A DNA stretch of 64,000 bases from Patescibacteria group bacterium (GCA_038054875.1 JBBUJK010000029.1:7442-71441), one strand, 5' to 3'; positions 10,595 through 38,206 are shown, counted from the first letter of the stretch. Notes: generated from the sequence alone by a model not told the origin. Translations and numbers: made by a program.

Positions 10595-10834
10595 GAGACC
10601 CACTCAGAGTCTTGGCCGGGTTGACAAAGCCCGGCTTTTCTGATAGTTTATAGCGTTTCGTACCACGCCTGCACATGGCTCGCAGGGGTGGCGATTCTGC
10701 GATAGGGGACGGTCATTTGGACCGTTCGTCTCTCCCGAATTTTTACGAACGGCATCCACTAGGGATGGCGGGCGTAAGGCATTCGTTCGAGACAACATGA
10801 CCGGCCAGGCGGAAACCTGGAACAACGAGGCTAA

Positions 10835-12229: not shown

Positions 12230-12367
12230 CAAGCGCCCCGCGTGGGTCGCAAAGGGGAGGGCAGTGCTCTTCGTGAGCACACCCTCCCATCCTTTTTCCA
12301 GCCCATCTCCGTGAAACGAGGTGCCCTGGAAGAGAGGATCCCTCTCTTGGTTCTTACAACGAGGTCA

Positions 12368-13183
12368 ATGATGCGTGCGCCACTACTCGCACTCCTGCTT
12401 ACCGGCTGCTACCTGTCGCACGAGCGTGCGGCACCCGTCGCGCCCGTGCCAGTCGCGGGTACCGCCATGGTGCGGTTGATCCGCGAAGCGCCCACACCGC
12501 TCGGATCGGATGAGAGTCGCCTGATCGGTGTTCATGTCTGGTCGACGGGCAATCCCATCGGCGTCATGAAGATGCTCTTCGTCCTGCATACCTTCCGAGG
12601 TGATCTCGTGGGCGATCCTGGATGGGGCATGGGCGATTTCCATCTCGAGATGAACGGCGAGGACGTGACGTCGGCTCTCGCCGAGATCTACGCTTGGGAG
12701 GGCCTCGTGGGCGTTGCTCCCAGGGACCTCGAGCAGGTGGTCTACGTCCGCTTCCATCACGAGCTTCTCGTGGATGGTGTCGGGTCGGACTTCATCCTGC
12801 ATGGTCGCGTGACGCGCGGGTCGCTTATGCCGGGTGACGAGCTGGAGCCCCGTTTCGTCTTCGGCGAATTTCCGGAGTGGTCCTGTCCGAATCGGGGGAT
12901 GCTGACGCCCACCTATCCGGTCACGGAGCGTCGCGTCTTCGGACCCGACATCTACAACGACCTTGCAGTCGTGCCGTGCGTTGTGCCGGTCGAGGCGGGT
13001 ACCTCGGAGAGCCCGTGCGCCGACACGACCTACGCGCGATTCCTCTGGTCGCCGCGAACGTCGCCGAGACATTCGGATCTCGACTGCGCAAGTGGCGGGT
13101 CGGATGACTGGGTGAGTGGCGCCTCGACGGACGACCCGGCTGCCATGGGTTCGGATCTCGTCGGCGAGACGCATCGTCCGTAG
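12368..13183 (+). CDS. hypothetical lipoprotein
   Basis: Start MMRAPLLALLLTGC (lipobox), preceded by a conserved leader module. Six-frame ORF 12242..13183 trimmed to the ATG after the conserved SD. Confidence 0.5.
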   Translation: MMRAPLLALLLTGCYLSHERAAPVAPVPVAGTAMVRLIREAPTPLGSDESRLIGVHVWSTGNPIGVMKMLFVLHTFRGDLVGDPGWGMGDFHLEMNGEDVTSALAEIYAWEGLVGVAPRDLEQVVYVRFHHELLVDGVGSDFILHGRVTRGSLMPGDELEPRFVFGEFPEWSCPNRGMLTPTYPVTERRVFGPDIYNDLAVVPCVVPVEAGTSESPCADTTYARFLWSPRTSPRHSDLDCASGGSDDWVSGASTDDPAAMGSDLVGETHRP

Positions 13184-13312
13184 GCGAGTCACCCGCAGGG
13201 GAGGGGCAGTCGAGTCCAGCTCGACACCCTCCCATCCTTTTTCCAGCCCATCTCCGTGAAACGAGGTGCCCTGGAAGAGAGGATCCCCCTCTTGGTTCTT
13301 ACAACGAGGTCA

Positions 13313-14125
13313 ATGATGCGTTCCTTGTTTCTCGCACTCGCGTTCTGCGCGAGCGGTTGCGGTGCACGGAGCGGACTCGAGTGTCCCGAGGTGCCCGTGC
13401 GGATTGCGGACGCCGGAATTCCGGACGCGCCGCTTCCCGTCGACGGCGGGACGGATGCCGGCAGCGACGCGGGAGTCGATGCCGGACCGCCCGCGCCGAC
13501 CTGCGTGGAGCCGGAGCCCGGTCGGCCTGTGGACTGCTCCTTCTACCTGAGCACGGGGCCTGGTGGCGGCTGCTTCTGTCGAACCTGCCCGCCGCGTTCC
13601 GACGACCGGGACCTCGCGCCCGGCAGCCTGGTACGGGGTACGAGTTCGTTCGCCAGTCATGTGGTGTACGTCATCGGGCGTGACGGCAGGCGGCATGTCT
13701 TCCCGTCGCCGCTCGAGCTCGCCTCCTGGCTCGGTGATGCTTCAAGCGCGGGTCCGACGCACCGCTGGGGCGACGGCGAGGACCGCAACCACATCTGCGC
13801 CCACATCGTGCAGGTGCCGGACGACGTCCTGAGCGCTTACCCGCTCAGCGATCGGAACGTGACGGTCCGACCCGGCACGTACATCGTCACCATCGATACC
13901 GTGCCGACGGAATGGGCGATCGACCGCGGGGGAGTGCTCCGCGAAATGACCCCCGAGATCTCCGAGGAGATCTGGCCGTTCTCCGCCCGCCGTCGCGTAC
14001 GGATCGTCGACGATGCGCTCTTCGGCAGCTACGTGCTCGGTTCGCCGGTCACGTCGGCCGCCGACTACGATCTCGATGCGCTCGCCCGCGTCACGCTGCT
14101 CGACGATCTCGAGGCACGGCCGTAA
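13313..14125 (+). CDS. hypothetical lipoprotein
   Basis: Start MMRSLFLALAFCASGC. The leader and first codons are near-identical to the preceding gene; the body is unrelated. Confidence 0.5.
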   Translation: MMRSLFLALAFCASGCGARSGLECPEVPVRIADAGIPDAPLPVDGGTDAGSDAGVDAGPPAPTCVEPEPGRPVDCSFYLSTGPGGGCFCRTCPPRSDDRDLAPGSLVRGTSSFASHVVYVIGRDGRRHVFPSPLELASWLGDASSAGPTHRWGDGEDRNHICAHIVQVPDDVLSAYPLSDRNVTVRPGTYIVTIDTVPTEWAIDRGGVLREMTPEISEEIWPFSARRRVRIVDDALFGSYVLGSPVTSAADYDLDALARVTLLDDLEARP

Positions 14126-20526: not shown

Positions 20527-20555
20527 TCCGTTCGCTCGGGACAGGGTTGACAAAA
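20527..20555 (+). promoter_or_regulatory. consensus sigma70 promoter TTGACA-N17-TATAAA
   Basis: TTGACA 20527-20532, 17-nt spacer aaaccgttcttttcagg, TATAAA 20550-20555. The -35/spacer is nearly identical to the promoters at 27165 and 37195. Confidence 0.55.
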
Positions 20556-20783
20556 CCGTTCTTTTCAGGTATAAAGATATGTCTTCTCAATGGCCAGTCG
20601 TGCCACCTGGAGAAGGCTTTGAACCTTGAAAATTCAAGGAAAAAGCAGACGGGTCGCCGACCGTGGGAATCTGTATGGTTTCCAGGGTTGGTGGCCCGTC
20701 CATGGTGGAATGGGGCCTGTGTTCGAGTGAGTGAATATTTGGCCGAAAGGCCGTGCGCTCCGTAAGGAGCAAAGAGGAGTGCC

Positions 20784-23738: not shown

Positions 23739-23767
23739 AGGTCGCGCATGATAGCACTCGTGTTGGA

Positions 23768-23843
23768 CTCCCTCCAGCTCCCTCTTCGCAAGAGGGAGAG
23801 TATGCGCGGGCAACCCCCTCTTGTGAAGAGGGGGAAGGGGGAG
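23768..23843. repeat. REP-like double-hairpin repeat, copy 1
   Basis: CTCCCTCTTCGCAAGAGGGAG ... CCCCCTCTTGTGAAGAGGGGGAAGGGGGAG. The same element occurs at 34488 and 37094. Confidence 0.7.
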
Positions 23844-27164: not shown

Positions 27165-27193
27165 TTGACAAAACCGTTCTTTTCTGCTATATT
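27165..27193 (+). promoter_or_regulatory. consensus promoter TTGACA-N17-TATATT (same family as 20527 and 37195)
   Basis: TTGACAaaaccgttcttttctgcTATATT. Confidence 0.55.
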
Positions 27194-27195
27194 AG

Positions 27196-27345
27196 GCCGT
27201 TGTTCTTTATCATGGTGGTATGTTGAAAGCGGCGTTTTGGGGCTTTTTTGAAGGCCCGAGAATGCCGTTTTTAACAGGTTGGTCCGAACTCGCGCTGGTG
27301 CGCGGGAGAGGGCTTGTCTGGCGGCGGTCGGAAGGTAGGTCAGCA
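27196..27345 (+). ncRNA. conserved 5' leader shared with the 37225-37351 leader (candidate cis-regulatory RNA)
   Basis: Blocks GGCCGTTGT / GCGGCGTTTT-GGGCTTTT-GGAAGGCC / GCCG(C)TTTT-ACAGGT are conserved between the two leaders. Both end in a GC hairpin plus SD. Confidence 0.35.
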
Positions 27346-27993
27346 ATGGCTCATCTCATCGCGGAAGTCTCACTCGGTCAGGTCTCGGAGCTCATCGCCC
27401 GCCTCGGGCGCGCGGGAATGGATCCCGCGCTCCTCAAGAAGGCGCTCGGTGACGACGAGTTGGTCGAGCGGATGGTCACTGCGGCCCGCACGGAGTCGCA
27501 GGACACCCCCACCCCGACGTCCTTCCCCATCTGGAAGACCATCCAGATCGGCGGGAAGACGAAGGACCAGCTCATCGCCGAGATCGAGGCGAAGGGCATG
27601 AAGATCGGCGACTACGCGCAGAGCATGCTGGCGAAGGAGGCGTTCACGACGCTTCCTAAGCCGTGCGAGCTCACCCTCGTCCGTCCCACGGTCGCGGAGC
27701 TCGGCTTCAAGAAGGGCGCGGTCACGAAGAACATCTGGAAGCGCGCCCAGGACCTGGGCCTCTCGCTCTGCCCAGCCGAAGTCGGTCCGCACCTGCGGCT
27801 CGTCGACGCCGACCAGGCGAGCGGCGACTACTACTGGATCGGCATGGAGCCGATCACTGGCGCCGGCGTCTACCCGGACGTGTTCATGGTCGGGCGCGGC
27901 GACTGCGGGCGCTGGCTGTTCAGCAGCGGTGCCTGGCCGGGCGATCACTGGTTTCCCGAGTTTCGGCTGGTGTTCGTCGCTCCGGGCAAGTAG
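27346..27993 (+). CDS. DGR target (variable) protein; C-terminal variable region ends ...EFRLVFVAPGK
   Basis: The 3' 135 nt (VR) matches the downstream TR, differing only where TR has adenine. The C-terminal FRLV motif is typical of C-type-lectin-fold DGR targets. The N-terminal 45 aa are paralogous to the gene at 37352. Confidence 0.7.
   Translation: MAHLIAEVSLGQVSELIARLGRAGMDPALLKKALGDDELVERMVTAARTESQDTPTPTSFPIWKTIQIGGKTKDQLIAEIEAKGMKIGDYAQSMLAKEAFTTLPKPCELTLVRPTVAELGFKKGAVTKNIWKRAQDLGLSLCPAEVGPHLRLVDADQASGDYYWIGMEPITGAGVYPDVFMVGRGDCGRWLFSSGAWPGDHWFPEFRLVFVAPGK
27857..27990 (+). repeat. DGR variable region (VR)
   Basis: About 134 bp aligned to TR 28350-28483. About 21 mismatches, nearly all at TR adenines (A to G/T). 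Confidence 0.8.
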
Positions 27994-28048: not shown

Positions 28049-28349
28049 ACCGATCGGCGTCACCTCCATCACTCGTTCGCGAGTGGTGTCGAGGTGGCGC
28101 CGCACTTTTTTTATCCTGATATACTGGTGTCGGTAGTAGGCGAATACGCGGGAGATCACGGTTTCCCGCTGCCGAATCCGTTTCGCACGCGTCCAGAGTC
28201 CGTCGGATCACGGTTCGCCGGAGCGTGGCTCGTGATGAATCAAAAAATGAAGATACTTGGTGTGCGCGCCTAGGCCATTCTGATGGCGAATACGATTCAG
28301 CCCGGAGAGTACTCAATGGGCAGTGTTCCGGACGGACGCGCGCACGTCA

Positions 28350-28483
28350 CCGACGCCGACGACTACCCGAACGTGTTCAAGGTCGAGCACGACGACAACG
28401 GGCGCTGGCTGAACAGCAACGATGCCAAGCCGGACGATCACTGGAATCCCGAGAATCAGCTGGTGTTCGTCGCTCCGGGCAAC
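28350..28483 (+). repeat. DGR template region (TR)
   Basis: Adenine-rich (many AAC codons in the VR frame) homolog of VR. The listed ORF 28283..28552 is this TR, not a gene. Confidence 0.8.
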
Positions 28484-28488
28484 TCTCT

Positions 28489-28914
28489 TCATTTCTCCCC
28501 GTTTGCCCTGCGCGAAGCGCTGGGTGTCGGGGAGTTTTGTTTGACGAGCTGACCATGCCAACCGCCGAGCATCCTGCCGACCTCGTCGACGCGCTGCGAA
28601 ATGGCGATATACTTCTTGTTGTCGAGCGATTTCGTTTCCCAGAGCACGAGAAGCAAGATTTTCACCGTGTCGAGTTTCCGGACGGCGTCGCGGACCGCCG
28701 GAATCTTTTCCTGCCGTGGCGTGAAGACGGCGGCAACGATCGCCTCGATCGTCTCGATGAAGAGAAGATCAACGCGTTGACCGAGCGTATGTCTATGGAT
28801 TTTCGGAATCGTTTCGTAGTAAGCGAACCAGATCAGATACGCGCTTTTCGTTTTCTGGAGGATCGGCAACAGCGTCGGGGGGGGGGCTTGATGAATCCGT
28901 CGGATGCGCAGCAT
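28489..28914 (-). CDS. avd: DGR accessory variability determinant (Avd)
   Basis: The minus-strand ORF ends ...AISQRVDEVGRMLGGWHGQLVKQN, a helical Avd-type signature. The N-terminal roughly 20 aa may not be translated. Confidence 0.55.
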   Translation of the reverse strand: MLRIRRIHQAPPPTLLPILQKTKSAYLIWFAYYETIPKIHRHTLGQRVDLLFIETIEAIVAAVFTPRQEKIPAVRDAVRKLDTVKILLLVLWETKSLDNKKYIAISQRVDEVGRMLGGWHGQLVKQNSPTPSASRRANGEK

Positions 28915-29896
28915 ATTCCGTCATACCTACGAAGAGATTACTTCTGTCGAGAACCTGCTTGAAGCATGGCTGGAGTTCGTGTGCGGCAAGCGAGGACGGG
29001 CCGACGTCCAGGCGTATGAGCTGGACCTGATGGGCAACCTGTTCGCGCTTCATGAACGGCTTGCCGCGATCACCTACACGCACGGACCATACGAGGCGTT
29101 CACCGTCTCGGATCCGAAAACAAGGAACATCCACAAAGCCACCGTCACGGACCGCGTCCTCCACCGGGCAGTGTACCGGAAGCTGTACCCCTTCTTCGAC
29201 CGCACGTTCATCGCCGACTCCTTCTCCTGCCGGAACGGCAAAGGGACGCACAAGGCGCTCGACCGCTTCCGCACCTTCGCCCGTCGCGTTTCCAGAAATC
29301 ATACGCGGACCGTCTGGGTGCTGAAATGCGACATCCGCAAGTTCTTCGCTTCCATTGATCACGTCGTACTGCTCAGGCTGCTCGACGAACGCATTGAAGA
29401 CAAACGCATCACGTGGTTGCTCGGGCGAATCGTCGGTAGCTTCTCATCGACGCGTTCCGGAGTCGGCCTGCCGCTCGGCAATCTCACCTCGCAACTGTTC
29501 GCCAACATCTACATGAATTCGCTCGACCAATTCGCCAAACATTTTCTCAAAGCAACGCAGTACATCCGCTACGCCGATGACTTTGTCATCCTCTCGCATG
29601 ACCGACCGTATCTTCTCGCGGTGCTCAACCTGACCCGACAGTTCCTTCGCGAACGCCTGCATCTCGAACTTCATCCCCAGAAGGTCACGATCACCACTGT
29701 CGCATCCGGCGTGGATTTTCTGGGATGGGTGCACTTCCCGGATCATCGCGTGCTGCGGAACGCGACAAAGAAACGGCTGATGAGAGCAATCTCTCAACAC
29801 GCAGATCGTGCGACGCATGCCTCCTATCTGGGATTGCTTCGCCACGGAAACGCGCATACTCTTCATCAATGCATCACACGCGCGATTGGGAATTGA
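28904..29896 (+). CDS. DGR reverse transcriptase
   Basis: Has the RT YADD box (YIRYADDFVIL) and the DGR-type [I/L]GxxxSQ motif (LPLGNLTSQ) in place of the retroviral QGxxxSP; the N-terminal segment ITSVENLLEAW is also present. 330 aa. GC lower than the flanks. Confidence 0.9.
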   Translation: MRSIFRHTYEEITSVENLLEAWLEFVCGKRGRADVQAYELDLMGNLFALHERLAAITYTHGPYEAFTVSDPKTRNIHKATVTDRVLHRAVYRKLYPFFDRTFIADSFSCRNGKGTHKALDRFRTFARRVSRNHTRTVWVLKCDIRKFFASIDHVVLLRLLDERIEDKRITWLLGRIVGSFSSTRSGVGLPLGNLTSQLFANIYMNSLDQFAKHFLKATQYIRYADDFVILSHDRPYLLAVLNLTRQFLRERLHLELHPQKVTITTVASGVDFLGWVHFPDHRVLRNATKKRLMRAISQHADRATHASYLGLLRHGNAHTLHQCITRAIGN

Positions 29897-29936
29897 CTTT
29901 TTCACTTCGCGTGCTAACGTCGCCGCGGAGGACAAC

Positions 29937-30980
29937 ATGAACGACGTGACCGCGCAATTCGGCACGACGGACGGCAGGTTCGCCGCCCGCTTACCGGACA
30001 TACTCCGGGAGGTCTGCGCCGCGACCGGTTTTGAGCCGGGGGAGGAGATCTGGCGGGGACGGGTCGTGGCTGCAGAGAAGGTGGCCACGCAGATCGTCTC
30101 TGGGACATGGCAGGGGAAGCCCGCGGCGTTGAAGCTGCAAGGAATCCCGTTGCAGTTTGAAGAGGCGGAGTTGATCCGTCGCTTCACCATCATGAACGCG
30201 TCGGAGCGCATCCGCGCGCCACAGGTCTACCAACACGAACCGTGGGACGCCTCCCGCGGGTACGGTTGGACGATCATGGAGCTCGTCCAGATGCGACTCC
30301 CAATCTACAGCCCGCCGGACGCGCCGGAGCGGGCCCGTCGTCGGTTCGCGGATTTCTACGTGGAATTCCACGGCAAGACGGCCCAGCATCCATTCTTCCC
30401 GAACGAGGAGCCGATGCTCGACACGCCGGCGTTCCTGGAGAAGCGCCTCCTGACCTGGCTCGACATCAACGCGACGGCGCCGGAGCACAACCGCATGCTC
30501 GTCGGCGAACAGCGGGCGCTCGTTGCCGCATACAAGTTGCAGATTGCTGCGCGCGGTCCCGAGCTGCCGATGATTTTCACGCATGGCCATCTTGGCCCGC
30601 GCGACATCGTCTGCGAGGGTATTGGAAAGTACGTTCTGTTCGGCCATGCCTTCTGGGGTTGGCGGCCGCTGTGGTATGACCTGGCGTTCAATGTCTGGAT
30701 CAACCTGATGGCTGCGGGCGAGCATGCAGTGCCCTCGGATGTCGGGCTCCGACAGATCGTCGAAGACTGGGCGGCGACCTACGCGCAGCTGCCCATGGCG
30801 ATGTCAGACCACCACTTCATCCGGAACTTCCGGTTCATGATGATCGAGCGGTGCATCGGTGCGCTGCTCGTGGACATTCCCGCCGGCGTACGCAGCGCAG
30901 AAGGGGAGCAGGCGCGTTCCGGACACCGCGAGGCAGTGTATGTGCTGGCACGGCGCATGCTCAAAGAACTCGGGGGATGA
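29937..30980 (+). CDS. phosphotransferase-enzyme-family (APH/choline-kinase-like) protein, possibly catalytically altered
   Basis: FTHGHLGPRDIVCE (Brenner-motif region with HGH in place of HGD) and LFGHAFWGWRPLWYDLAF (DFG-like). Start ATG after GGAGGA. Confidence 0.45.
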   Translation: MNDVTAQFGTTDGRFAARLPDILREVCAATGFEPGEEIWRGRVVAAEKVATQIVSGTWQGKPAALKLQGIPLQFEEAELIRRFTIMNASERIRAPQVYQHEPWDASRGYGWTIMELVQMRLPIYSPPDAPERARRRFADFYVEFHGKTAQHPFFPNEEPMLDTPAFLEKRLLTWLDINATAPEHNRMLVGEQRALVAAYKLQIAARGPELPMIFTHGHLGPRDIVCEGIGKYVLFGHAFWGWRPLWYDLAFNVWINLMAAGEHAVPSDVGLRQIVEDWAATYAQLPMAMSDHHFIRNFRFMMIERCIGALLVDIPAGVRSAEGEQARSGHREAVYVLARRMLKELGG

Positions 30981-30988
30981 GACCGCTT

Positions 30989-31017
30989 TGACAAGCGGCT
31001 CTTTTTTTGCTATACTA
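30989..31017 (+). promoter_or_regulatory. terminator hairpin doubling as a TTGACA-N17-TATACT promoter
   Basis: GCCGCTTtgacAAGCGGC hairpin + TCTTTTTTTGC + TATACT. Confidence 0.5.
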
Positions 31018-34426: not shown

Positions 34427-35257
34427 ATGCGCGCCATACTGCTCGTCATTGCCGTTCTGCTTGCAGGGGCGGGATGCGTGCCATTGCAAACTCCCCCTTC
34501 CCCCTCTTCGCAAGAGGGGGTTGCCGGAGCATCACTCCCCCTTGTGAAGGGGGAGACGGAGGGAGTCCCTGAACTGCGCGTCCCCGTCCTCATGTACCAC
34601 CACGTCGGCACTGTACCCGCGCGTGATCCGTACGGGCTGTTCGTTTCGACTTCGACCTTCCGCGCCCAGATGCAGGCGCTCAAGGACGACGGCTGGAGCG
34701 TCGTGACCATGCCGGCGCTTGCGGACGCGCTCGAGGGAAAACAAACGCTGCCGAAAAAATCCGTTGTCATCAGTTTCGACGACGGCAACCGCGACACGTC
34801 CACGGGTGCATTCCCCATACTCCAGGAATTCAGATATGACGCAACGGTCTTCGTCATGACCGGTCCGTCCGGCAACAAGGCCGCGTCTTATCTGCCGCCG
34901 GATCTGCTGCGCGAGTTGATGGACGCGGGATGGACGATTGCGCCGCATACCCGCTGGCATGAGACGCTGACGCGTGTACCAGAAGCGCTTGCCCGCGAAG
35001 AGGTCGTTTCGTCGGTCGAGTTTCTTGCGCGCGAGGTCGGCGTGCGCGAGCCGTATTTTGCGTATCCAAACGGCGAAGAAAACGAAACGGTGCGCGGTTT
35101 CCTGCGCGAGGCCGGTATCCGCTATGCCTTCACCATTCACGAGGGTGTGGTGACGACGTCGAGCGATCCGTTGGCTTTGCCGCGGCTGCGCATGGGAGAA
35201 GATTACGGCGTCCAGAAATTTCTGGAACGGTTGCGTGCCGCTGCGGTACGTGGCTAG
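34427..35257 (+). CDS. polysaccharide deacetylase (NodB-family) lipoprotein
   Basis: Lipobox LLAGAGC, NodB motifs VVISFDDGNRD and HTRWHETL. The N-terminal linker contains an in-frame REP-like repeat. Confidence 0.75.
   Translation: MRAILLVIAVLLAGAGCVPLQTPPSPSSQEGVAGASLPLVKGETEGVPELRVPVLMYHHVGTVPARDPYGLFVSTSTFRAQMQALKDDGWSVVTMPALADALEGKQTLPKKSVVISFDDGNRDTSTGAFPILQEFRYDATVFVMTGPSGNKAASYLPPDLLRELMDAGWTIAPHTRWHETLTRVPEALAREEVVSSVEFLAREVGVREPYFAYPNGEENETVRGFLREAGIRYAFTIHEGVVTTSSDPLALPRLRMGEDYGVQKFLERLRAAAVRG
34488..34575. repeat. REP-like double-hairpin repeat, copy 2 (inside a coding linker)
   Basis: CCCCCTCTTCGCAAGAGGGGG ... CCCCCTTGTGAAGGGGGAG. Translated in-frame as ...PSPSSQEGVAGASLPLVKGETEG. 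Confidence 0.65.
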
Positions 35258-35268
35258 ATAGATGCACT

Positions 35269-37092
35269 ATGTGCGGCATCATCGGCTACATCGGCAATCG
35301 CCCGGCCACGCCCTTCCTCATCGAAGGACTGCATCGTTTGGAATACCGCGGGTATGACTCCGCCGGCGTGGCGCGTCTGACGCCGACAGGGCTTGTGCTT
35401 TCCAAGGCGGCCGGGAAAGTCGCCGAGCTTGCCGCGCTCCTGCCGGCTGATGCGACGGAGACGCTGGGCATTGCCCACACCCGCTGGGCGACCCACGGCG
35501 CGCCGTCCGAAGTGAACGCCCACCCGCACCTCGACTGCACCGGGAAAATCGCCGTCGTGCACAACGGCATCATTGAGAACTATCAGCACTTGAAACGCCG
35601 GCTCGAAGACGAAGGTCACCGCTTCCTGTCGGAAACCGATACCGAAGTGTTGCCCCATCTGATTGAAAAGCATTACCGCGAGAATTTGGGCGAGGCAGTG
35701 CGCCTGGCGCTGCAGGAAGTGCGGGGCGCCTATGCCGTGGCCGTTGTCGCCGCCGACCAGCCGAATTTGATCGTCGCGGCACGTCGCGGCAGCCCGCTCG
35801 TGCTCGGCGTCGGCACGAACGAACACTTCATCGCCTCCGACGTCGGTGCAATCCTGCAGTTCACCAAGGATATCGTATATTTGAACGATGGCGAGCTGGT
35901 GCGTATTTCCCGCGAAAGATTCCGTGCCATGACGCTCGACAATATCTGGGTTGAAAAGGAAGTCGAACACCTGACGCACGAAGCCGACAAATACGAGAAA
36001 GGCCAGTGGCCGCACTACATGCTCAAAGAAATGCATGAGCAGCCGGAAGTCATCCGGCGCGCAGCCATGGGGCGCGTGCTCGTGGATGACGCCATGGTGC
36101 GTTTCAGCGGGTTGAACCTGACGCTCAGCGAGCTGCGCGCCAAGCGGCGCGTCGTCATCATCGGTTGCGGCAGCGCGTCCTACGCCGGCATGGTCGGCAA
36201 GTACCTCTTTGAAGAGTTCGCGGGCATTCCCACGGACGTGGTTGTTGCCAGCGAGTTCCGCTACAAGCGCATCCAGGTGGAAGACGATGCGCTCGTGCTT
36301 GTCGTGAGCCAGTCCGGCGAGACCGCCGACACCCTGGCCGCGTTGCGCGAGCTCAAACGGAAAGGGTTGAAGGTCTACGGCATCTCGAACGTGCTGGGCT
36401 CCTCCATCGCACGGGAAACAGACGGCGGCATTTTCATCAATGCGGGTCCCGAGATCGGCGTGGCATCGACCAAAGCATTTTTGGGTCAGCTCACCGTGCT
36501 CACCCTGCTCGCATTCTTGATGGGCCGGTTGCGGGAGATGTCCGTTGCCGACGGCCGCGAGGTGTTGCGCCAGCTCGGCCAGGTTCCCGGCATCATCGGC
36601 GACCTGTTGGCCCGGCGCGCCGAACTCGCTCCGGCGGTGGCGCTCCTCAAAGACGCGCCGTCGGCGTTTTACCTTGGCCGCAAGATGACCTACCCGATCG
36701 CGCTCGAGGGCGCGTTGAAGTTGAAGGAGATCGCCTACGTCCACGCCGAAGCGTATCCGGCCGGGGAGATGAAGCACGGACCGATCGCGCTTCTGACCGA
36801 CACCTTCCCGTGCGTGGTGCTGGCACCCAAGGACAGCGTCCGTGAAAAGACGATTTCGAACATCCAGGAGATCCGCGCCCGTTCGGCGAAGATCATCGCG
36901 ATCGGCACGGCGGGCGACGAGGAACTCGCGGCGCTCGCCGACGTCTTCTTCCCCATCCCCGAGATCCACGAAATGCTCCTGCCGCTCGTGACGCTCATCC
37001 CGATGCAGATGTTGGCCTACGAAACCGCCGTGGCCAAAGGATACGACGTCGACAAGCCGCGCAATTTGGCGAAGAGCGTGACCGTTGAGTGA
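35269..37092 (+). CDS. glmS: glutamine--fructose-6-phosphate aminotransferase
   Basis: MCGIIGYIG N-terminal nucleophile and two SIS domains. 607 aa. Confidence 0.95.
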   Translation: MCGIIGYIGNRPATPFLIEGLHRLEYRGYDSAGVARLTPTGLVLSKAAGKVAELAALLPADATETLGIAHTRWATHGAPSEVNAHPHLDCTGKIAVVHNGIIENYQHLKRRLEDEGHRFLSETDTEVLPHLIEKHYRENLGEAVRLALQEVRGAYAVAVVAADQPNLIVAARRGSPLVLGVGTNEHFIASDVGAILQFTKDIVYLNDGELVRISRERFRAMTLDNIWVEKEVEHLTHEADKYEKGQWPHYMLKEMHEQPEVIRRAAMGRVLVDDAMVRFSGLNLTLSELRAKRRVVIIGCGSASYAGMVGKYLFEEFAGIPTDVVVASEFRYKRIQVEDDALVLVVSQSGETADTLAALRELKRKGLKVYGISNVLGSSIARETDGGIFINAGPEIGVASTKAFLGQLTVLTLLAFLMGRLREMSVADGREVLRQLGQVPGIIGDLLARRAELAPAVALLKDAPSAFYLGRKMTYPIALEGALKLKEIAYVHAEAYPAGEMKHGPIALLTDTFPCVVLAPKDSVREKTISNIQEIRARSAKIIAIGTAGDEELAALADVFFPIPEIHEMLLPLVTLIPMQMLAYETAVAKGYDVDKPRNLAKSVTVE

Positions 37093-37093
37093 C

Positions 37094-37188
37094 GGACTCC
37101 CTCCGTCTCCCTCTTCGCAAGAGGGAGGGAAACCCGGGTAACCCACCTCGGCAGCCCCCTCTTTGTGAAGAGGGGGGAAGGGGGAGTA
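37094..37188. repeat. REP-like double-hairpin repeat, copy 3
   Basis: CTCCCTCTTCGCAAGAGGGAGG ... CCCCCTCTTTGTGAAGAGGGGGGAAGGGGGAG. Confidence 0.7.
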
Positions 37189-37194
37189 TGGACC

Positions 37195-37223
37195 TTGACA
37201 ATTCGGGCTTTTTCTGTTATATT
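37195..37223 (+). promoter_or_regulatory. consensus promoter TTGACA-N17-TATATT
   Basis: TTGACAattcgggctttttctgtTATATT. Near-identical to the promoter at 27165. Confidence 0.55.
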
Positions 37224-37224
37224 T

Positions 37225-37351
37225 GGCCGTTGTGGAATGCGGCGTTTTTGGGCTTTTGGAAGGCCTTAGGACGCCGCTTTTCACAGGTGAGCCGATTCCG
37301 GGGCGTTTCCCGGAGGAGGTCAGCCGAGGCGGTGACAGGAGGGTGAGCCAC
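37225..37351 (+). ncRNA. conserved 5' leader, paralog of 27196-27345
   Basis: Same conserved blocks as the 27196 leader, including the GCGGCG...CGCCGC stem, a CCGGGgcgttTCCCGG hairpin and SD GGAGGG. Confidence 0.35.
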
Positions 37352-38206
37352 ATGGCCAGCCTTTTCGATCTGGGTCTGGGTGAGTTCGACGAGTTCAAGC
37401 GCATCGCCCACAAGGCGGGATTCAGCGCCGAGCTGATCCGCAAGGTGAACGGCGACCCCGAGCTCGCCGTCGTCGCGCGCGCGGCCATCGAGGCCAAGCT
37501 CGCGGAGATGGCGAAGCCCCGCTTCGTCCTCTCGGTCTACGAGCAGTTCCGTCGCTTCAGTGCCGCGAACAAGGCACAGGGCTGGGGCTTCGACGCAGAG
37601 GTCTTCGAGAGGCTCGCGGCGACGGTGCCCGAGTGGCCCGAGGGCAAGCTCTGTGTGCGGTCGCTGCGGATCCGCATCGGCGAGGGAGCCGCGGGGGCCG
37701 CCACGACCTTCGAGGCCCACGCCGCGGAGATCCAGCGCGTCTTCTCCAGCGAGAAGTACTGGCGCTGGGAGCATCTGCGCTCCGCACCCCACCCCTACGA
37801 GGGGGCGGACCCCAAGCTCCAGAAGCGCTTCGGGGACAAGCCGGTGGAGCGCCTCCGGCTCCTCGCGGGCAACGACACACACAAGCCCGTGGTCGAGTGG
37901 GTCGTGATCGACCTCGACGCCCACCGGAGCCGCAGGAGCATCACGGCGGTCCGCGACAAGAAGTCGTCGCTGGCCGACGAGCTGCTCGTCGTCGCCTGGA
38001 TGTTCCCGGAACTGATCCGGGCCATCGACTACGACGAGGTCCCCGGGCTGTTCGCCGGCGGCTACGAGCTCAACGTTCCCGAGGAGGACGGCGAGGGGTG
38101 GCGGGACGTGCCGTGCGTCGTCTTCAGCGGCAGTCAGGTGGAGCTGGGCGCCGGCTGGCACTGCGACGACGGCTCGTACGACTCAGTTCCCGCCCTGCGG
38201 GAGTGA
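37352..38206 (+). CDS. hypothetical protein, N-terminal domain paralogous to the DGR target (no VR)
   Basis: N-terminal 45 aa about 50% identical to the 27346 product (LGxxxExxxxxxxAGxxxxLxxKxxGDxELV). The C-terminal 230 aa are unrelated. Confidence 0.5.
   Translation: MASLFDLGLGEFDEFKRIAHKAGFSAELIRKVNGDPELAVVARAAIEAKLAEMAKPRFVLSVYEQFRRFSAANKAQGWGFDAEVFERLAATVPEWPEGKLCVRSLRIRIGEGAAGAATTFEAHAAEIQRVFSSEKYWRWEHLRSAPHPYEGADPKLQKRFGDKPVERLRLLAGNDTHKPVVEWVVIDLDAHRSRRSITAVRDKKSSLADELLVVAWMFPELIRAIDYDEVPGLFAGGYELNVPEEDGEGWRDVPCVVFSGSQVELGAGWHCDDGSYDSVPALRE

Follow-up and report, generated by a model that had tools for sequence, protein, structure and literature searches.

A candidate two-state 5' leader RNA upstream of variable-protein genes of diversity-generating retroelements in Uhrbacteria-like Patescibacteria

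The variable proteins of diversity-generating retroelements (DGRs) are abundant in bacteria of the candidate phyla radiation (CPR), and we know of nothing reported on how or when they are expressed or on what they do; to our knowledge, few RNA motifs have been described in Patescibacteria. Here we consider a 64-kb window (the whole stretch of DNA analyzed, GCA_038054875.1, JBBUJK010000029.1, positions 7442 to 71441) from a Patescibacteria metagenome-assembled genome (MAG) of high GC content (~60%), in which two genes of DGR-target families on the plus strand, gene 1 (27346 to 27993) and gene 2 (37352 to 38206), are each preceded by a related leader. The comparison of leaders suggests that this element is a cis-acting structured 5' RNA with two states, carried by the mRNAs of DGR variable proteins of Uhrbacteria-like Patescibacteria, which we consider probable, if well short of certain. 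Its general layout comprises a long hairpin (P1, 22 to 25 bp), a conserved AAAGG linker, a second hairpin (P2), a GRCGGC box, 10 to 20 nt, the Shine-Dalgarno sequence (SD), and the AUG.

Leaders processed by RNase III, or bearing a stabilizing hairpin at the 5' terminus, are known from the rnc and pnp leaders of Escherichia coli, from N of phage lambda, from the early mRNAs of T7, and from the ompA 5' untranslated region (UTR). The present leader resembles them in its long near-perfect duplex of about two helical turns and in that its second hairpin can be located at the 5' end of the mature mRNA, as it is in natural short forms described below; different from them, the cleavage of P1 is only putative, strong sequence conservation marks the base of the duplex, and the 3' strand can re-pair with a downstream box, with covariation. 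Another term of comparison is offered by the orphan 5'-UTR motifs (Rfam 'Cis-reg'), given that comparative genomics has yielded 224 orphan structured motifs or riboswitch candidates (Weinberg et al. 2017, PMC5737381). With these the leader shares a covarying structure between promoter and ribosome-binding site, occurrence on the sense strand, the tie to a particular gene set, and alternative pairings similar to an expression platform; it differs from them in that it matches no Rfam 15 model, has no junction-type aptamer, has one state far more stable than the other, and precedes genes for Patescibacteria DGR variable proteins instead of a metabolic pathway. In fact, a scan of the whole window with Rfam 15 at the gathering threshold (4227 models, including RT-1 to RT-19 and the DUF1874 motifs) returned only 6 tRNAs, and in E-value mode both leaders and leader L014 gave only chance-level matches, far under the threshold, in keeping with the original prediction, whose author had recognized no common riboswitch class.

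Structured nucleic acids are also known within DGR loci, namely, the 'DGR RNA' and spacer flanking the template repeat (TR), the Rfam RT-10 motif between TR and reverse transcriptase (RT) (PMC5737381), and the initiation of mutagenic homing (IMH) element with a hairpin/cruciform downstream of the variable repeat (VR) (PMC3240598). Those elements are sited at TR/RT or 3' of VR and serve cDNA synthesis or homing, whereas the present leader is located 5' of the target gene, 500 to 850 nt from VR, and is found even where an orphan target lacks a neighboring TR or RT. No promoter, leader, or UTR element of target genes is described in those DGR surveys and papers on RNA motifs that we searched. We regard the leader as a new family within the known kind of structured cis-acting 5' leaders, and hence a candidate new regulatory RNA, whose unusual features are the tie to DGR targets and the long- and short-form architecture.

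In the window, the leader measures 152 nt from the -10 element to the ATG in front of gene 1 (leader 1) and 128 nt in front of gene 2 (leader 2); all elements of both leaders lie on the plus strand. The predicted 5' end of transcript 1 (27194 to 27221), delineated from the sequence and from the upstream regions of loci L009 to L047 and L053 to L093, includes GGCCGTTGT and GTTCTTT, and the GTTCTTT(GAAAT) block comes after the -10 element in most long-form leaders elsewhere. It is followed by P1 (27222 to 27275; -38.2 kcal/mol, z = -7.1), with the 5' arm GTTGAAAGCGGCGTTTTG at 27222 to 27239 and the 3' arm at 27257 to 27275, the core of which is GCCGT (27264 to 27268). Folding places next to it a three-tier P2 (27277 to 27319) with an inner GC stem CGCGC..GCGCG at ~27290 to 27306, after which come the box G-GCGGC-G (27320 to 27326), complementary to the core of the P1 3' arm and nearly invariant in its CGG, and the stretch from the SD (GGAAGG) to the start codon of gene 1 (27330 to 27348, with the codon at 27346 to 27348), identified from the sequence and a reading-frame check. 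The same series recurs in leader 2, where P1 (37232 to 37284; -36.2 kcal/mol, z = -5.4) has its 5' arm at 37232 to 37249 and its 3' arm at 37266 to 37284 with the core GCCGC (37273 to 37277), the three-tier P2 (GGTGAGCC...CCGGGGCGTTTCCCGG...GGTCAGCC) extends from 37287 to 37325 (z = -3.2), the box GGCGGT (37328 to 37333) is complementary to 37273 to 37277, and the SD (AGGAGGG) and start codon (37352 to 37354) occupy 37338 to 37354.

The two leaders are ~80% identical from the promoter to the hairpin, apart from a 20-nt indel, and the similarity decays thereafter; between the two loci, DNA identity is ~50% ahead of the -35 element and ~57% within the coding region, which speaks against a block duplication extending into the flanks. 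The original prediction of a leader with conserved blocks in front of both genes was confirmed, since the GGCCGTTGT pattern and GCGGCGTTTTNGGGCTTTT are common to both and GCGGCGTTTTNGGGCTTTT occurs at exactly these two sites, and so was the succession of a GC hairpin and an SD, which is evident in the sequence and in the folds. A covariance model built on 44 leaders, with both window leaders in the training set, assigns 75.9 and 74.0 bits to the window copies and finds no other credible match in the 64 kb.

Altogether we collected 62 distinct versions of the leader, all from Uhrbacteria-like Patescibacteria (~60 related genomes and metagenomes), and every leader found is on the sense strand, 50 to 80 nt upstream of a start codon. 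A profile built on the gene 2 family detected 41 loci in GTDB species genomes, 28 of which have the leader upstream and at least 6 more have it in a short form; in most of them, GTTGAAAGYGGCGTTTTG...CARAAYGCCGYTTTCAAC lies between a TTGAC-N17-TATAAT promoter and the gene. Furthermore, the DNA pattern GTTGAAAGYGGCGTTTTG...CARAAYGCCGYTTTCAAC retrieved 41 further loci from metagenomes, in each of which a gene begins 50 to 80 nt downstream of the motif and in the same orientation. A viral origin of leader or genes was rejected, as the pattern had no match in viral contigs and the proteins had none in PHROGs. The 44-leader covariance model yielded 73 sense-strand matches in 88 sources, at 48 to 111 bits, against 20 to 43 bits for the palindromic antisense matches. 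In the sister genome GCA_964648865, a P1 hairpin with compensatory changes and a different apex precedes both orthologues, and the P1-to-ATG segment of leader 2, which contains P2, is 88.6% identical to that of the orthologous leader L046.

The leader shows strong covariation of base pairs. Across the 44 leaders, 88% of the cells in the P1 alignment are paired, as opposed to 39 to 55% in slid-register controls, and 15 of the 22 pairs have changed on both sides, values that none of 500 shuffles reached. In particular, pair 10:123 occurs as GC in 23 leaders, AU in 12, and GU in 6, and pair 48:111 occurs as six pair types. G·U outnumbers A·C in P1 by 141 to 20, which argues that P1 has been selected as sense-strand RNA and not as a DNA palindrome. 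The base of P1 is conserved also in sequence (GUUGAAAGYGGCG / CGCCGYUUUCAAC), and the hairpin as a whole is a near-continuous duplex of at least ~20 bp (22 aligned pairs, 88% paired), as an RNase III substrate has to be. As for the apex, an alternative and longer apical module (GUYGUC-CCCCG..CGGGG-AUCCAGAAY) was observed in L005 (2857 to 2929), L046 (2365 to 2436), and L034 (2207 to 2287), being common to both sister-genome leaders and to one unrelated genome. The apex is the same in paralogous leaders of any one genome, which suggests that the P1 tip has been exchanged as a module or by gene conversion; indels prevent global identities from deciding whether paralogous leaders evolve in concert.

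P2 shows little sequence conservation; its mean fold z-score is -2.9, with 34 of 44 leaders below -2, and in the 62 leaders its outer 3 bp covary, pair 142:186 being GC in 27, AU in 14, and GU in 14. The GRCGGC box between P2 and the SD is nearly invariant and complementary to the core of the P1 3' arm. The helix that these two segments can form (arm3:box) is 88% paired in the 62 leaders, compared to 27 to 54% in slid registers; its pair 121:191 occurs as CG in 29 leaders, UA in 21, and UG in 7, and none of 500 shuffles attained the covariation score of the helix. Compensatory changes are visible by eye in the aligned sequences of L028 (GCCAU:AUGGC), L035 (GCCAC:GUGGC), L032 (CACCGC:GCGGUG), and L031 (CUACUC:GAGUAG), and the covariation count is conservative in L028, L029, L031, and L047, where the MAFFT alignment mis-registers the box. 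Moreover, when the duplex energies of segments from the same leader were compared to those with segments of other leaders, only arm5:arm3, arm3:box, and the P2 strands proved leader specific (each p<=0.0005). The covariation that the original prediction had called for is thus borne out for P1, for the outer pairs of P2, and for arm3:box.

The 3' strand of P1 can pair with the P1 5' strand or with the downstream box, but not with both at once; when it is paired with the box, a long hairpin is closed around P2. Mutually exclusive helices between a sensor and an expression platform are expected of a riboswitch, and both helices covary here; an alternative pairing that occludes the SD or AUG, or that forms a terminator, which would also be expected of one, was not found. 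Six natural leaders (L001, L017, L021, L027, L038, and L040) lack the P1 5' strand, so that the promoter abuts the 3' strand, and in these short forms the unconstrained minimum-energy fold is the arm3:box helix closing P2 at the 5' end, with compensatory variants represented in the folds of L040 (CGUCC:GGACG) and L027 (ACCGC:GCGGU). Judging from the way in which the short forms fold, the core structure appears to be the box-closed hairpin, with the P1 5' strand as an added competitor for the 3' strand. Of 44 long-form leaders, 38 have P1 as their minimum-energy fold, and in the others P1 comes within 3.5 kcal/mol of the minimum; the box-closed state is on average ~12 kcal/mol worse than the P1 state. 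A switch operating by simple equilibrium was rejected on these grounds.

A further resemblance within the leader was observed next to these helices. The segment after P1 (AAAGG and ~8 nt) is more similar to the SD-plus-spacer of its own leader than to that of other leaders (p<=0.0005), as can be seen in L013, L033, L053, and L079 (alignment A9) and, in the window, at 27276 to 27288 compared to 27333 to 27345. No complementarity accounts for this likeness, and the segment may be a pseudo-ribosome-binding site. Three segments of a leader, namely, that after P1, the P2 3' strand, and the spacer between SD and AUG, resemble direct repeats and change in concert from one genome to another (GGTACGCC is present three times in L013). 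When pairing of the SD region with either of the other two was tested, the direct similarity within leaders proved significant (S1~S3, p<=0.0005) but leader-specific complementarity to the SD region did not, and an SD-sequestering switch was therefore dropped from consideration.

The comparison shows an RNA structure on the transcribed strand in which one strand has two exclusive pairings, its place between promoter and ribosome-binding site, and the existence of natural long and short forms. On these bases, it is possible to hypothesize that function resides chiefly in the box-closed 5' hairpin, for instance as an mRNA stabilizer or as a setting for the ribosome-binding site, and that the 5' strand of P1 is an add-on holding the mRNA in a different state. 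P1 is much the more stable state and would form first during transcription, so that the alternative could arise only after P1 is cleaved or opened, and switching would need the removal or opening of P1. Most likely, the long duplex would be cut by an RNase specific for double strands, of the RNase III type, or a factor would bind at the conserved P1 base. Removal of P1 would leave an mRNA similar to the short forms, with a 5'-terminal hairpin, and the switch would alter the stability of the mRNA or the translation of the variable protein. We favor post-transcriptional control by P1 processing, acting on mRNA stability or translation, with less confidence in the processing than in the two-state leader as such.

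Several points weigh against this proposal. All the evidence on the leader is comparative, and the transcription start sites (TSSs) are predicted. The sequences are phylogenetically related, so that shuffle controls overstate significance and the slid registers are the fairer control. The sequence conservation at the base of P1 exceeds what RNase III needs, the duplex-energy test found no leader-specific pairing with the SD or the AUG region, and in constrained folds the accessibility of the SD showed no consistent change between the two states (0.62 compared to 0.55 unpaired). In addition, the box resembles the P1 5' arm, so that some of the arm3:box covariation could be due to recognition of both sequences by one factor, an interpretation against which the short-form leaders argue.

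Among the other explanations, we regard as possible, though rather unlikely, a leader acting as a sensor of a protein or ligand, perhaps autoregulated through binding of P1 RNA by the three-helix N-terminal domain that the two window proteins share, which would couple the expression of all DGR-diversified binding proteins to one signal. Somewhat less probable is a riboswitch-like choice between P1 and the box-closed hairpin, made by a small molecule or an RNA-binding protein, with the shared N-terminal domain as one candidate, that binds the conserved P1 base and the UUUCAACAAAGG segment. The conservation in sequence of the P1 base and of the UUUCAACAAAGG linker, even in the short forms, is what such a binder would explain. 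However, the advantage of P1 by ~12 kcal/mol makes a simple equilibrium switch unlikely, the leader has no multi-stem junction or aptamer-type pocket, and the downstream genes hint at no metabolite; as for the candidate domain, the leader-bearing genes L005, L073, L075, and L093 lack it, and the confidence of its model is low (predicted local distance difference test [pLDDT] 46 to 71).

Comparably improbable, in our view, is P1 as an intrinsic terminator, i.e., an attenuator or insulator that stops the majority of transcripts begun at the leader's own promoter and read-through from trxB or glmS, with expression through antitermination. GAAA and UUU(U) border the GC core GCGGCG/CGCCGC, 40 of 44 leaders have an unbroken run of 3 to 5 U after GCCG(C), and inspection of the sequence revealed no terminator from the stop codon of trxB (27158) to the promoter of leader 1. 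On the other hand, the 8 nt after the GC core contain 3 or 4 U in 42 of 44 leaders, against a criterion of at least 5, and in the full stem those U are base paired; the terminator scan did not report P1, the stem of which, at 22 to 25 bp, is far longer than that of typical terminators. Furthermore, the sole covarying competitor for the 3' arm, the box, lies downstream and so cannot act as an antiterminator during transcription, and the short forms retain the 3' arm with no upstream hairpin partner.

It is very improbable that the element is a palindromic DNA operator, with a dimeric repressor binding the inverted repeat GTTGAAAGCGGCG...CGCCGCTTTCAAC and the RNA hairpin a mere by-product. The arms are indeed conserved in sequence, lie directly downstream of the promoter, and change together; but a DNA palindrome predicts symmetry between G·U and A·C, the apical helix covaries with no conservation of sequence (as in pair 48:111), the half-sites are 17 to 60 nt apart at variable distance, and the arm3:box and P2 pairings are meaningful only as RNA. 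Finally, neutral duplication of, or gene conversion between, two paralogous upstream regions devoid of function deserves next to no credit and is refuted as a full explanation, because, although the window leaders share the lineage-specific GGCCGTTGT and the P1 apex GGGCUUUU..GAAGGCC, and the sister-genome leaders another apex, which suggests some exchange within genomes, the 62 distinct leaders come from many genomes and metagenomes with compensatory changes, the flanks are unrelated, and the order glmS-leader-gene2-comEC occurs in the sister genome as well. In the same way, a recent local duplication including the flanks, which the original prediction had named as an outcome that would overturn it, is excluded by the conservation of the leader in ~60 copies from other genomes.

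The promoters upstream of the two leaders do not share the specificity of the leaders themselves. The promoter of leader 1 (27165 to 27193, plus strand) has a -35 element TTGACA at 27165 to 27170, an extended -10 TG at 27185 to 27186, and a -10 element TATATT at 27188 to 27193, matching 11 of 12 consensus positions with a 17-nt spacer; that of leader 2 (37195 to 37223, plus strand) has TTGACA, a 17-nt spacer, and TATATT, also with TG. From these strong sigma-70-type promoters, the predicted TSSs would have the RNA begin ~30 nt (leader 1) or ~8 nt (leader 2) ahead of P1. The near-identical promoter that had been described in front of both genes does exist, although with a spacer of N8 and not N10, which has no match: the 39-nt pattern TTGACAA-N8-TTTTCTG-N-TATATT-N-GGCCGTTGT occurs at exactly two sites in the window (27165 to 27203 and 37195 to 37233), with 0 expected from 100 shuffles. 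It is not a private signal of the pair, since the layout TTGACAA-N8-TTTT(C)TG-N-TATA recurs before unrelated sequence at 10621 to 10649, 20547 to 20575, and 30988 to 31016, and the promoter at 20547 shares 20 identical bases with that at 27165 and yet is followed by an unrelated leader. The promoter layout is therefore a general house style of this genome.

With regard to the proteins, the leader occurs mainly with the gene 2 family, and leader-bearing proteins fall into at least five families, i.e., the gene 2 family (34 proteins), the gene 1 family (5), and at least 3 more, which are small families or singletons. Among gene 1 relatives the leader is present in a minority only, and it is absent from the upstream DNA of the distant gene 1 homologues at L049 to L052. 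At ~11 of 44 leader loci, a TR-like repeat is located nearby, with mismatches almost all at TR adenines, and most of these loci have an RT nearby. Gene 1 encodes a DGR variable protein of 215 amino acids identical to 'AAB974_03050 [Patescibacteria group bacterium]', with the N-terminal three-helix domain at ~27346 to 27498 and VR at 27854 to 27989. The repeat comparison with VR located TR at 28347 to 28482 (plus strand); the two are 83% identical, and 22 of 23 differences are at TR adenines. The accessory gene bAvd (28492 to 28914, minus strand; Pfam PF22296, E=1.8e-11) and the RT gene (28904 to 29896, plus strand; Pfam RVT_1, E=1.4e-24) follow, so that gene 1 is a DGR target in all respects.

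Gene 2, which encodes 284 amino acids and represents a second DGR-target family, has its N-terminal three-helix domain at ~37352 to 37510 and an orphan VR-like 3' end at ~38060 to 38206. Its 145 homologues are all from Patescibacteria-type MAGs, and the closest (P0001 at locus L001, 70% identity) has its own VR, TR, bAvd, and RT. Both repeats of the L001 DGR, VR and TR, can be aligned with the 3'-terminal ~130 nt of gene 2; relative to the L001 TR, this 3' end is changed at 22 of the 33 adenines, as opposed to 12 of the 88 remaining positions (p=3e-8), which argues that gene 2 carries an orphan or remotely served VR; as no TR cognate to it is present within the window, gene 2 may be a remote target or belong to a decayed DGR. 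The claim that only gene 1 has a VR was therefore misleading, and the idea that a DGR has captured a single member of the family as its target has to be abandoned as well, because the gene 2 homologue has a full DGR and gene 2 itself an adenine-biased orphan VR; both are DGR-target families.

The N-terminal similarity of the two proteins is genuine, although weaker than the ~50% identity over the first 45 residues that had been reported: a pairwise BLASTP gave 14 of 39 identical positions (36%, with 51% positives; E=0.004), and a 48-column hidden Markov model scored 37.6 bits (E=7e-11), compared to a maximum of 9.2 bits in 500 shuffles. AlphaFold2 (AF2) models contain three N-terminal helices in both proteins (residues 9 to 53). 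Among gene 1 relatives, the N-terminal profile of the gene 2 family clearly matches only P0121, identical to gene 1 of the window, and P0122, which argues that the three-helix domain is a mobile module, apparently a separate one shuffled among families. The C-terminal parts, as predicted, are unrelated, and homology between the two bodies was rejected (hhalign probability 0.8%). Different from the C-type-lectin-fold DGR proteins Mtd and TvpA, the window target proteins have no sequence match in Pfam, NCBIfam, PHROGs, or PDB, and the body of gene 2, not homologous to that of gene 1, has no Foldseek match to its fold (with moderate model confidence). Thus, of the modular family with a shared regulatory RNA element originally proposed, the structured leader and the exchange of N termini among bodies stand, whereas the promoter specificity and the captured member do not.

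As regards the neighborhood, relatives of gene 1 and gene 2 come from Uhrbacteria-type and other Patescibacteria MAGs, and the upstream neighbors of the two genes differ, gene 1 being located after trxB and gene 2 between glmS and comEC. An open reading frame of 390 amino acids (29808 to 30980) overlaps the end of the RT gene and has no match in Pfam, NCBIfam, or PHROGs. GC-rich palindromic elements resembling repetitive extragenic palindromes (REP), namely, CCCTCTTCGCAAGAGGG / CCCCCTTGTGAAGGGGG, are found at 23760 to 23820, 34493 to 34568, and 37089 to 37183; they are intergenic, occur as direct and inverted copies, including on both flanks of glmS, and may be terminators or a repeat family. 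Elsewhere in the window, the regions 12279 to 12394 and 13224 to 13339, 945 nt apart, are 93% identical over ~100 nt upstream of, and including, SD and ATG, and are apparently the leaders of two tandem paralogous genes; their differences are not adenine specific, and they are thus not a TR/VR pair. Between 52000 and 55100, GC content falls to 0.43 to 0.52 around three adjoining tRNA genes (Arg-TCT, Arg-CCT, and Ile-TAT; 54867 to 55096).

The leader RNA marks at least five unrelated families of variable proteins, including orphan targets far from any RT, and it offers a sequence handle with which DGR targets and their paralogues can be recognized in metagenomes. Sharing of the leader implies co-regulation of these genes, and with two competing helices and natural long and short forms it constitutes a compact RNA amenable to testing, which would add a class of structured regulatory RNA to Patescibacteria. 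Should the leader act as a sensor, it would define a dedicated post-transcriptional regulon for the hypervariable proteins of an ultra-small symbiotic bacterium, with the removal or opening of P1 as the switch.

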